DNA of 64,000 nt from Escherichia coli. GTDB taxonomy: Bacteria > Pseudomonadota > Gammaproteobacteria > Enterobacterales > Enterobacteriaceae. The position numbers and the translations under genes are program-made. Location of the stretch: the NCBI RefSeq assembly GCF_046105845.1, contig NZ_CP151004.1; one strand, written 5' to 3'. The notes under the pieces were generated by a model that saw nothing but the letters and a program-made list of their open reading frames with translations, was not told the DNA's origin and did not search any database. Shown here one piece after another: positions 43,682 to 46,534 of the stretch (positions within the stretch are counted from its first letter, which is position 1; each line of letters opens with the position of its first letter).

Positions 43682-43872
43682 TTATACAAAGCGGCAGGTT
43701 AGGGCTTTTTTTTATAATTTATAGTTAAAAACGCGATATAATACAGCGCCGCACAGCAGGATCGCTGCCTTGACAGTTCATCTACATCAGCGTTAAAAAT
43801 CCCGCAGTAGATGAAGTTGTGGTGGTGGATTAATGACCACTCTAAATGTTTAACCGGAAGAAGTCAGAGCTA

Positions 43873-45039
43873 ATGAAAATAACAATTTCAGGAACAGGTT
43901 ATGTTGGTCTTTCAAATGGTATTCTGATTGCGCAAAACCACGAAGTGGTTGCACTGGATATCGTTCAGGCCAAAGTGGACATGCTTAACAAGAAGCAGTC
44001 ACCGATTGTTGATAAGGAGATTGAAGAGTATCTGGCGACTAAAGATCTCAATTTCCGCGCTACGACAGATAAGTATGACGCGTATAAAAATGCCGATTAC
44101 GTTATTATTGCCACACCTACCGATTATGATCCGAAAACAAATTATTTTAATACCTCAAGTGTGGAAGCGGTCATTCGTGATGTGACAGAAATTAATCCCA
44201 ACGCGGTAATGATTATAAAATCAACTATCCCTGTTGGTTTTACAGAGTCCATTAAAGAACGGTTTGGTATTGAAAATGTGATCTTTTCGCCGGAGTTTTT
44301 GCGCGAAGGGAAAGCACTTTATGATAACTTGCATCCATCACGCATTGTGATTGGTGAGCAATCCGATCGCGCTGAACGTTTTGCAGCGTTATTACAGGAA
44401 GGCGCTATTAAGCAAGACATACCAACATTGTTTACTGACTCAACCGAGGCTGAGGCGATTAAACTTTTTGCCAACACTTATCTGGCTATGCGTGTAGCGT
44501 ATTTCAATGAACTTGATAGTTATGCTGAAAGCCTGGGGCTTAATTCACGCCAGATTATTGAGGGCGTATGCCTTGACCCGCGTATCGGTAATCACTACAA
44601 CAACCCGTCATTCGGTTATGGTGGTTATTGTCTGCCGAAAGATACCAAGCAGTTACTAGCAAATTACCAGTCTGTGCCGAATAACCTGATCTCGGCAATT
44701 GTTGACGCCAACCGCACGCGCAAAGATTTTATTGCCGATTCTATCCTTGCACGTAAACCGAAAGTTGTTGGCGTCTATCGTTTGATTATGAAGAGTGGTT
44801 CAGACAATTTCCGTGCTTCCTCGATTCAGGGTATTATGAAGCGAATCAAAGCGAAAGGCGTGCCTGTAATCGTTTATGAGCCAGCTATGAAAGAGGACGA
44901 TTTTTTCCGGTCACGCGTGGTACGTGATCTGGATGCATTCAAACAAGAAGCTGATGTTATTATTTCTAACCGTATGTCTGCCGATCTGGCTGATGTAGCA
45001 GATAAAGTTTATACGCGCGACTTGTTTGGCAATGATTAA
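43873..45039 (+). CDS. ugd: UDP-glucose 6-dehydrogenase (divergent allele)
   Basis: From [16 protein letters not shown], 388 aa, catalytic GGYCLPKD; N- and C-terminal thirds look divergent from the K-12 allele as I remember it, and a second ugd 3' end lies at 46287-46387. Confidence 0.93.
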
Positions 45040-45062
45040 TTATTTTGTTTCATTCTAAGAAA

Positions 45063-45085
45063 AGGCCCTAATAAATTAGGGCCTT
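45063..45085. terminator. Bidirectional stem-loop between convergent ugd and gla
   Basis: AGGCCCTAATAAATTAGGGCCT perfect inverted repeat flanked by A-run and T-run (aagaaaAGGCCC...GGGCCTtttctt). Confidence 0.7.
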
Positions 45086-45104
45086 TTCTTATGGTTTTGT
45101 AAAA

Positions 45105-46109
45105 TCAAACTTTATAGAAGTTACGATACCATTCTACAAAGTTCTTTACCCCCTCTTTAACTGACGTTTCAGGTTTGAATCCTATTACGTCATACAGTGC
45201 TTTTGTATCAGCACTGGTTTCCAGTACATCACCGGGTTGGAGAGGCATCATATTTTTGTTGGCTTCAATACCCAGAGCCTCTTCTAAGGCATTGATATAG
45301 TCCATCAACTCCACAGGCGAACTATTACCTATGTTATAGATACGATATGGTGCTGAACTTGTTGCAGGCGAGCCTGTTTCTACAGCCCACTGTGGATCTT
45401 TTTCTGGAATAACATCCTGTAAGCGAATAATAGCTTCGGCAATATCATCAATATAAGTAAAGTCACGCTTCATTTTGCCGAAGTTGTAAACATCAATGCT
45501 TTTACCTTCCAGCATGGCTTTAGTAAATTTAAATAATGCCATATCCGGACGTCCCCATGGACCATAAACCGTAAAGAAACGCAGCCCTGTGGTCGGTAAG
45601 CCATACAAATGAGAATACGTATGGGCCATGAGTTCATTCGCTTTTTTAGTTGCTGCATAAAGCGAAACAGGATGATCTACAGAGTCATCTGTAGAGAAAG
45701 GCATCTTGCGGTTCATGCCATAAACAGAACTGGAGGAAGCGTAAAGTAGATGTTGAACATTATTATGGCGGCATCCTTCCAGTATGTTCAGGAATCCAAT
45801 CAGGTTTGCATCTGCATATGTATTGGGATTTTCAAGGGAGTAACGTACACCTGCTTGCGCAGCGAGGTTTATTACGCGATCGAACCGCTCGTCTGCAAAT
45901 AGTGCCGCCATTTTCTCACGATCGGCCAGGTCAATTTTATAAAAACTGAAATTGTCGTGCTTGAGTAAATCAAGTCGTGCTTGTTTGAGGTTGACATCGT
46001 AATAATCATTTAAGTTATCAATGCCTACAACCTGATGACCAGCTGCAAGAAGCCGTTTACTTACATAGAAACCGATAAAGCCAGCAGCTCCCGTAACCAG
46101 AAATTTCAT
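45105..46109 (-). CDS. gla: UDP-glucuronate 4-epimerase (UDP-GlcA to UDP-GalA), NAD-dependent SDR
   Basis: 334 aa, [21 protein letters not shown], YxxxK (YAATKKA); resembles Gla/Uge/Cap1J-type epimerases found next to ugd in Klebsiella-type loci. Confidence 0.8.
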
Positions 46110-46286
46110 TTATAATCCTCACTCAGGCTAGAATATAGCCAATCTTCATCTGGCATAACTGAAAGTTAAATCATACCGTTAGACAAGAAAAAAAGATAAT
46201 CGGTATCAGTTCTAAACCTGGCTGTTTTTTCTGGTAACGTGCTCATTTTGCAATCATAGCTGTTCTAAGCTGACTATTAGACCACC

Positions 46287-46387
46287 TTCAAACAACAAGC
46301 CGACGTCATTATTTCCAACCGTATGGCAGAAGAGCTTAAAGATGTGGCAGATAAGGTCTATACCCGCGATCTCTTTGGCAGCGACTA
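46287..46387 (+). pseudogene. ugd: Relic 3' end of an ancestral ugd (last ~33 codons plus stop)
   Basis: Translates in frame to [33 protein letters not shown], a near-copy of the C-terminus of the intact ugd at 44938-45039 (..[33 protein letters not shown]); no upstream ORF continuity. Confidence 0.8.
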
Positions 46388-46534
46388 ACATCCTGTTATC
46401 AGGGCGATTTTCGCCCTGATTCTCTTATGTTCCCTTTGTAATAATTCATTATTTTTATCATTTATCCTATAGCATTCATGGCGATTATCGCTAAACTATG
46501 GCGACTTAAAATTATTTCGTCCGTTAGGGTAATG

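Follow-up and report, generated by a model that had tools for sequence, protein, structure and literature searches.

Bacterial genomes can acquire genes by homology-facilitated illegitimate recombination, which has been described for transformation of Acinetobacter and Streptococcus pneumoniae. Intergeneric import of gnd and ugd alleles and their hitch-hiking with O-antigen clusters were reportedly documented by Nelson and Selander in 1994, and the uge and gla genes of Klebsiella are said to have been described by Regue in 2004 and by Frirdich and Whitfield in 2005. Gene remnants are also known from this part of the chromosome: O8/O9 locus remnants lie beside his in O89m strains of Escherichia coli (PMC6128206), and nine O-serogroup clusters contain "gene remnants" (PMC7685785). 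Here we analyze a 64,000-nucleotide (nt) stretch of E. coli DNA (the window; contig NZ_CP151004.1 of assembly GCF_046105845.1) in which an intact ugd gene and a convergent epimerase gene, gla, are followed by a second, truncated copy of the ugd 3' end, the ugd relic. As in the O-antigen and his-region remnants, a truncated resident gene stands beside apparently imported polysaccharide genes at the gnd-his hotspot and is polymorphic in the species; in contrast to them, the truncated gene here is the 3' end of ugd, outside the galF-gnd cluster, and no insertion sequence (IS) is involved in the window. As in allele hitch-hiking, highly divergent housekeeping alleles flank the cluster and mosaic ugd alleles are common, but the window adds a gene, gla, and a physical scar that hitch-hiking alone would not leave.

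We consider it very probable that the locus arose by a single import with an illegitimate join at its right end, that the resulting module later spread, and that the relic has since been overwritten by recombination. The genes run in the order gnd (plus strand), ugd (plus), gla (minus), a 172-nt spacer, the ugd 3' relic, a hairpin, wzzB (plus) and hisIE (minus). With K-12 as the reference for ugd type, spacer and flanks, the features are as follows.

42218..43624, plus strand: gnd of the resident E. coli type, flanking the module on the left (42218-43680 is 94.4% identical to K-12; sliding identity 88-99% along the gene)
43651..43677, plus strand: terminator-like hairpin of gnd (terminator scan; similarity to K-12 stops just beyond it, at ~43680)
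43681..43872, plus strand: spacer between gnd and ugd, not of K-12 type (~50% identical to K-12), with which the divergent block begins in this strain
43873..45039, plus strand: intact ugd, UDP-glucose 6-dehydrogenase, 388 amino acids (aa), a divergent imported allele
45056..45091, no strand assigned: 16-pair hairpin, bordered by runs of A and of T, in the gap where ugd and gla converge (terminator scan)
45105..46109, minus strand: gla/uge-type NAD-dependent epimerase, predicted UDP-glucuronate 4-epimerase, 334 aa
46110..46281, no strand assigned: 172-nt spacer from the gla start codon to the relic, the donor-derived region upstream of gla, its right end the illegitimate junction
46282..46388, plus strand: relic of the resident ugd, last 107 nt including the stop codon (K-12 ugd nt 1061-1167)
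46398..46420, plus strand: native ugd terminator hairpin, retained behind the relic (terminator scan)
46389..46534, plus strand: resident ugd-wzzB intergenic region (83.6% identical to the K-12 spacer, colinear)
46535..47512, plus strand: wzzB of the resident E. coli type, right flank (same position as the annotated wzzB of related genomes)
47610..48221, minus strand: hisIE

The relic is what is left of a resident ugd of K-12 type, and the original terminator, spacer and wzzB of that gene remain attached to it. A gap-free alignment of 44938-45039 with 46287-46388 has 78 of 102 positions identical and ends in a stop codon in both copies, and a repeat search recovered the same pair independently (76% over 102 nt). 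Over its 107 nt the relic is 74% identical to the 3' end of the window's own ugd and 94.4% identical to K-12 ugd (blastn E = 3e-43); within the aligned 102 nt it matches K-12 at 96 positions. Translation of its 33 codons and stop (46386-46388) is identical to that of K-12 Ugd. The inverted repeat behind it, ATCAGGGCG-ATTTT-CGCCCTGAT at 46398-46420, was scored as terminator-like and also directly follows the intact ugd of K-12. Positions 46282-48221 form one colinear alignment, 90% identical to the ugd 3' end, wzzB and hisIE of K-12, in which ugd nt 1061-1167, the terminator, the spacer and wzzB follow each other as expected for a gene remnant. The Prokaryotic Genome Annotation Pipeline (PGAP) calls a partial pseudogene at the same stretch in other genomes. 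Chance similarity and an assembly artifact are both excluded by the E value of the relic and by the occurrence of the structure in ~276 independently closed genomes.

Much of this had been anticipated by a first-pass annotation of the window made from the letters alone. The intact ugd and the convergent epimerase gene lie where it had placed them (43873-45039 and 45105-46109). It had located a second copy of the ugd 3' end at 46287-46387, and this copy is real, although it starts 5 nt further left and ends 1 nt further right. The gap of ~180 bp reported between gla and the relic also exists, but measures 172 nt; an inverted repeat given as 46395-46418 and taken for the native ugd terminator is indeed that, 2-3 nt to the right. 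The impression that the relic is closer to K-12 than to the C-terminus of the intact gene is borne out by the counts (96/102 versus 78/102). The similarity between relic and ugd is significant, and the arrangement is a minority state in which the intact ugd diverges from the majority allele.

At the right junction, the spacer at 46110-46281 aligns with gla-wzzB intergenic DNA of Citrobacter sp. FP75 and C. werkmanii, by blastn as far as 46200, and the sequence then changes abruptly from this Citrobacter-like spacer to K-12 ugd, starting at nt 1061. Compared with the part of ugd that precedes nt 1061, the spacer has no significant similarity (87-283 of 300 shuffles reach the observed score). 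Because a crossover between two ugd genes would yield a hybrid gene and no duplicate, the right end is an illegitimate join, at which intergenic DNA of the donor abuts the coding sequence of the resident ugd. The single crossover inside the ugd 3' end that had been proposed at first does not fit this junction, which links a non-ugd spacer to ugd nt 1061. A relic extending further left was considered on account of the spacer motif CTGGTAACGTG, which resembles the ugd codons just upstream of nt 1061. This extension was rejected on the same shuffle test, which covered the spacers of the window and of the locus L090 variants, and the partial presence of the motif in Citrobacter spacers is a further point against it.

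The breakpoint (...CCTTCAAACAACAAG) is common to all 11 loci compared that carry the window's gla class (class A, at least 95% identity), and lies behind at least nine different O-antigen clusters: the O48-like cluster of the window, O48, O113, O139, O54, O133 and several without a PGAP name. A single breakpoint behind many clusters argues for one old event and later spread, and indicates that the class A module probably arose once before it was disseminated. Four of the 11 loci carry a derived 17-bp deletion across the junction that includes the first codons of the relic. Two class A loci have later IS insertions inside the module. In E. coli 2017.17.01CC (17143-19141 of locus L088), an IS1 and a duplicated 180-nt gla 3' fragment lie between ugd and gla, and wzzB contains an internal stop; in the O48 strain A17 (14210-14668 of locus L089), an IS200 lies between ugd and gla.

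The intact Ugd of the window matches the NCBIfam equivalog PRK15057 over residues 1-388 of 388 with 797.2 bits (cut-off 757). Its gene is 74% identical to K-12 ugd at the nt level and 84% at the aa level; the corresponding values for Citrobacter, Enterobacter and Kluyvera are 76-80% and 90-92%. To count as a carrier in our survey of 5,426 complete E. coli genomes, a genome had to contain at least 80% of 43640-46560; 276 did, and in the others ugd directly adjoins wzzB. With the insert alone (45040-46281) as the query, class A gla was found in 278 genomes and any gla-like sequence in 530 (~10%). Alleles of ugd were counted over 5,443 records: the K-12 type (at least 95% identity) is the majority state, with 3,573 records, and the window's allele (at least 95%) is present in 257. 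Compared with the 278 genomes that carry this gla, the latter figure shows that the ugd allele is tightly linked to it. Intact ugd and gla together are a divergent imported block carried by ~5% of E. coli. Thus the original suggestion that a foreign ugd-gla segment had replaced most of the resident ugd stands, given the 74% identity to K-12 and the minority status of the arrangement. The shared breakpoint shows that the event did not take place in this strain. G+C content was discarded as a marker of foreignness because ugd is low in G+C in both allele types (42.5% versus 43.8%).

The left side of the block is less sharply defined. The gnd gene is of the ordinary E. coli type (94-99% identical to K-12), and divergence sets in from ~43680, after the gnd terminator: identity to K-12 in 100-nt windows drops from 97% to ~50% directly after the hairpin, and the blastn alignment stops at 43680. 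The adjoining spacer (43681-43872) is 98-100% identical to those of class A loci and of MEI1A, a mosaic strain without gla. A query of spacer plus ugd from the window retrieved 668 records at 80-90% identity, with full-length matches at ~86.5%. In the mosaic alleles examined among these, the spacer and the initial ~300 nt of ugd are of window type, the rest of ugd is of K-12 type and gla is absent, which indicates that crossovers inside ugd are probably frequent in E. coli. Later crossovers of this kind blur the original left end of the import, which therefore cannot be fixed. The alignment of window 43681-44200 with the locus of E. coli MEI1A-0323 (L003) is an example of an apparently common type of mosaic allele. 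We also observed that the first 330 nt of K-12-type ugd (2784-3113 of locus L002) are an outlier among the compared alleles, at 66-70% identity to all others; the other ugd 5' ends, from E. coli classes, Citrobacter, Enterobacter and Kluyvera, are 74-89% identical to one another over this region. The majority E. coli allele may itself have a 5' part of unusual origin.

The order gnd-ugd-gla-wzzB-hisIE, with gla convergent to ugd, occurs in Citrobacter sp. FP75, C. werkmanii, Enterobacter cloacae, Enterobacter asburiae, Kluyvera genomosp. 1 and one non-E. coli contig. The native arrangement of Citrobacter, Enterobacter and Kluyvera resembles the window in gene order, in orientation and in the hairpin between convergent ugd and gla. 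In the window this hairpin (45056-45091) lies inside a block that aligns continuously with Citrobacter FP75 (43840-46200) and is likely a bidirectional terminator. The Ugd proteins of these genera are 90-92% identical to that of the window, and the Gla proteins, with Klebsiella included, 83-89%. Unlike the window, however, Citrobacter, Enterobacter, Kluyvera and the non-E. coli contig carry no second ugd fragment between gla and wzzB, and in the genomes of the three genera the relic query matches only intact ugd. Thus the relic is an E. coli feature, whereas the gla-containing order is native in other genera.

None of these native loci is the donor, since the module is only 74-80% identical at the nt level to every genus sampled. 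The native loci of the named genomes came from a survey with Gla as the query, in which each species was represented by a single genome. In a collection of 5.8 billion proteins, E. coli sequences at 98-99% identity are followed, after a gap, by a flat plateau at 86-89% comprising Citrobacter, Trabulsiella, Enterobacter, Salmonella, Pseudescherichia, Raoultella and Klebsiella. The Klebsiella-like donor raised as a possibility in the first-pass annotation is rejected as a specific claim, as Klebsiella Gla (85-86%) is no nearer than that of six other genera. The nearest Gla outside E. coli (P0004, 89%), encoded with native synteny in a non-E. coli contig, was rejected as a donor representative because its locus is only 76% identical to the module at the nt level; the contig that carries it has a closer counterpart in the O111 locus, at 87% identity.

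These data suggest the following course of events. An ancestral E. coli with the order gnd-ugd-wzzB-hisIE would have taken up DNA from a member of the Enterobacteriaceae in which gnd-ugd-gla-wzzB-hisIE is native. The incoming piece would have comprised a complete ugd, the ugd/gla terminator, gla and ~172 nt of DNA upstream of gla, and its right end would have become fused to the resident ugd at nt 1061 by an illegitimate join. For the left end, homologous recombination is the most likely resolution, either within gnd or shortly behind it, or else early in ugd. Nucleotides 1-1060 of the resident ugd would have been lost and its last 107 nt, the terminator, the spacer and wzzB kept. The module would then have moved by homologous recombination among E. 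coli lineages with various O-antigen clusters, with the relic and wzzB providing the right-hand homology. One homologous anchor upstream and an illegitimate join downstream make up the simplest mechanism; we infer this one-sided use of homology, the order of events and the enzymatic role considered below.

The relic does not behave as a neutral pseudogene and is not decaying. Among the 11 class A loci relics diverge by 3-8% in nt, and of the 12 codons that vary, 11 do so only synonymously, for which neutral mutation in situ gives P = 2e-7; the translation is invariant in 10 loci and has a single Arg-to-Cys change in the other. This pattern is what one would see if the relic were kept for a function of its own, be it a translated peptide (for example, from an internal ATG), control of wzzB or insulation against a divergent gla promoter. 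The best database match of the window's relic plus spacer (99.2%), however, comes from a genome without gla, at the 3' end of its intact ugd, and most of the top 60 matches (98-99%) are functional ugd genes interleaved with relics. Haplotypes common to relics and functional ugd genes argue that the relic is repeatedly overwritten by homologous recombination. It appears to be refreshed from functional alleles or, equivalently, to form the edge of the right-hand homology arm. Because the same haplotypes occur at 98-99% in intact ugd genes of strains without gla, import of already filtered variation suffices. A peptide is further disfavored by an in-frame TAG directly upstream of the relic in the window (46278-46280), by the lack of a ribosome-binding site evident by eye before the internal ATG and by the 17-bp loss that removes the first codons in four of the 11 loci. 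Selection on the relic itself is unneeded to explain the synonymous pattern and unlikely, and we give a dedicated function of the relic little credence. Its milder version, in which the right-hand homology arm that carries the module between lineages has the relic as its leftmost part, is included in our explanation.

The same end product could have been reached by a Campbell-type route, in which a circularized donor ugd-gla fragment integrates by a single crossover in ugd to give two hybrid ugd copies, the second of which is later deleted down to its last 107 nt. Recombination inside ugd is evident in E. coli from the mosaic alleles, but this route takes two steps, none of the 11 loci has a second ugd copy longer than the relic that could represent an intermediate, and nearly all carriers of class A gla have the full-length arrangement (276 versus 278 genomes). 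Moreover, the DNA to the left of the relic is donor intergenic sequence and not ugd, so that one end of the deletion must have fallen exactly at the region upstream of gla; we consider the route improbable. That several related genera carry gla natively at this position raises the question whether the gla-containing order is ancestral to Escherichia, with the K-12 order produced by loss of gla and the relic a by-product of this loss or of a local duplication. The relic, however, is of K-12 type (94%), and its difference of 24-26% from the intact ugd beside it shows that it is not a local duplicate; it is also continuous with a K-12-type terminator and spacer. Class A ugd and gla are equally distant from the other E. 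coli gla classes and from other genera, and genera with the native synteny carry no relic. An ancestral gla is contradicted by these data, with hardly any probability left to it.

Several observations weigh against a single import with an illegitimate right join. The left boundary is blurred, and the examined examples at 80-90% identity, both MEI1A and the full-length matches, lack gla. No donor above 80% nt identity (or 89% aa identity for Gla) was found among the genera searched, so that neither any microhomology at the junction nor the true position of the left end can be read. The G+C content of gla is 41.8%, compared with 48-54% in its orthologues. Two loci, L090 of E. coli A23 and L091 of E. 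coli 1297KP (4171-4246 in both), are strongly diverged over the ~46 nt that adjoin the junction on its left, such that 22 of 46 positions vary across the 11 loci, and this stretch has no match among the sequences compared. Yet gla differs by only ~3%, a combination that a simple single-event history does not explain. As for the enzymatic assignment, the epimerase passes no NCBIfam model, with GalE, RfbB, TviC and others far below their cut-offs.

The sequence of the epimerase nevertheless points to a role in nucleotide sugar synthesis. Motifs GAAGFIG (residues 7-13), ASSSSVY (~123-129) and YAATK (151-155) provide the NAD-binding and catalytic signatures of an extended short-chain dehydrogenase/reductase. 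The protein shares 80.5% identity with PDB 5u4q across 334 residues, followed among the PDB matches by 6zl6 (E = 7.5e-44), the UDP-glucuronic acid (UDP-GlcA) 4-epimerase of Bacillus cereus. The Klebsiella homologue of Gla (K. pneumoniae complex, 86% identical) is reported to be a UDP-galacturonic acid (UDP-GalA) 4-epimerase, and some Joint Genome Institute homologues at 87% are named "UDP-glucuronate 4-epimerase". The 25 NCBIfam matches listed include no dedicated Gla model. A separate GalE/Gne-type epimerase is encoded in the upstream cluster (41103-42110); thus gla is not needed for Gal or GalNAc. Ugd would make UDP-GlcA, and Gla would convert it to UDP-GalA for GalA-containing O-units, making a role of gla in UDP-GalA supply for the O-antigen plausible.

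A published strain may illustrate this role. Strain LL004 has the same layout of ugd, a 334-aa epimerase gene on the complementary strand and wzz, together with a GalA-containing O-unit; its authors named the epimerase gne and stated that gla maps elsewhere (PMC8657804). The distance from the gla start to the wzz start in LL004 is 409 nt (PMC8657804), which fits the variant with the 17-bp deletion. A review likewise locates the UDP-GalA genes at conserved loci elsewhere (PMC7685785). We think it likely that the gne of LL004 is gla, that most E. coli lack gla and that the literature has misassigned the gene. ATP-grasp proteins are encoded in several class A clusters, with an amidoligase annotation in two of three. 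Judging from the title of a cited reference, O110 contains an amide of GalA, and the ATP-grasp proteins would fit amino-acid amides of uronic acids.

The class A module is not the only form of gla in E. coli. In class B (O111) and class C (SW07163) foreign DNA continues through wzzB into his, with his genes 77-82% identical to K-12, and neither class has a ugd relic. Over 8 kb, class B shares 87% identity with a non-E. coli contig, whereas the match of class C is E. cloacae, at 82-88%; the two classes appear to show what clean, two-sided homologous replacement leaves behind. The O8/O9-associated forms of gla are Klebsiella-like and represent yet another configuration. All of these share with class A the position of gla beside ugd at the same locus but differ in their alleles, and gla of the other configurations is 72-77% identical to class A gla at the nt level. 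In O111 and in strain 98218 gla is a pseudogene. From these comparisons, E. coli has acquired gla at this hotspot several times, with only class A leaving this scar.

Some of these loci have further peculiarities. In E. coli O111:H8 (locus L084, 1123-9103), the stretch gnd-ugd-gla-wzzB-hisIE-hisF-hisA is 87% identical to the non-E. coli contig (L093) and 71-86% identical to K-12; its gla contains an internal stop, and the whole stretch looks like a large intergeneric replacement. In E. coli 19KM1766N (NZ_CP151005.1), a 70-nt fragment at 3835-3904 of locus L086 is 78.6% identical to K-12 ugd nt 1097-1166. A different gla allele, part of a manC-rfbK-ugd-gla block beside IS66/IS21, directly precedes this fragment, which may be a second, independent ugd 3' relic. 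Beyond wzzB, the loci of E. coli A23 and 1297KP continue with a remnant of part of hisIE and with an O8/O9-like cluster headed by manC.

No open reading frames (ORFs) of insertion sequences, integrases or similar mobile elements are present in 43.6-46.6 kb of the window, and a repeat search at the module borders found no flanking direct or inverted repeats besides the two ugd copies; both results speak against insertion mediated by a mobile element. No Rfam family came near its gathering score in the region. A consensus scan for a gla promoter on the minus strand of 46110-46281 found no site, and fewer sites overall than in shuffled sequences. Further upstream, 30520-42110 holds a variant of the O48-like O-antigen cluster (rfbBDAC, glycosyltransferases, wzx, wzy and galE/gne). 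Its wzy is 98.8% identical to that of only two complete genomes and 80% identical to wzy of the O48 family, and an additional ORF of ~345 aa (37896-38933) is absent from the O48 strain A17. This cluster may represent an undesignated O-genotype.

The scar dates and orients the horizontal transfer, as the recipient had the K-12-type ugd-wzzB order, and one event would have seeded a module that is now present in ~5% of E. coli and in many O-serogroups, including O113, O139, O54, O48 and O133. It also points to the place where UDP-GalA synthesis may be encoded in E. coli. If the module is indeed mobile, gla would be the unrecognized, mobile determinant that supplies UDP-GalA for the GalA-containing O-antigens of E. 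coli, at odds with the published placement of UDP-GalA genes at conserved loci elsewhere. Expression of a GalA-containing O-antigen in K-12, for example for glycoconjugate vaccines, would probably require that gla be moved too. In-silico serotyping and cluster definitions that end at gnd or ugd miss gla.

No description of this ugd relic was found in the literature searched, but the event is of a known kind: remnants and intergeneric imports both occur at the gnd-his region and are expected at a recombination hotspot. Homology-facilitated illegitimate recombination offers the closest mechanistic likeness. There, as proposed here, homology anchors one end only and the join at the other end does without it, so that genes are gained and resident sequence is deleted; at the ugd locus the junction is seen, whereas we only infer the anchor. 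To these known systems the window adds a single illegitimate junction shared by many loci, a relic-free native synteny in other genera, multiple independent imports of gla, a relic apparently refreshed by recombination and a likely misassignment of gla.

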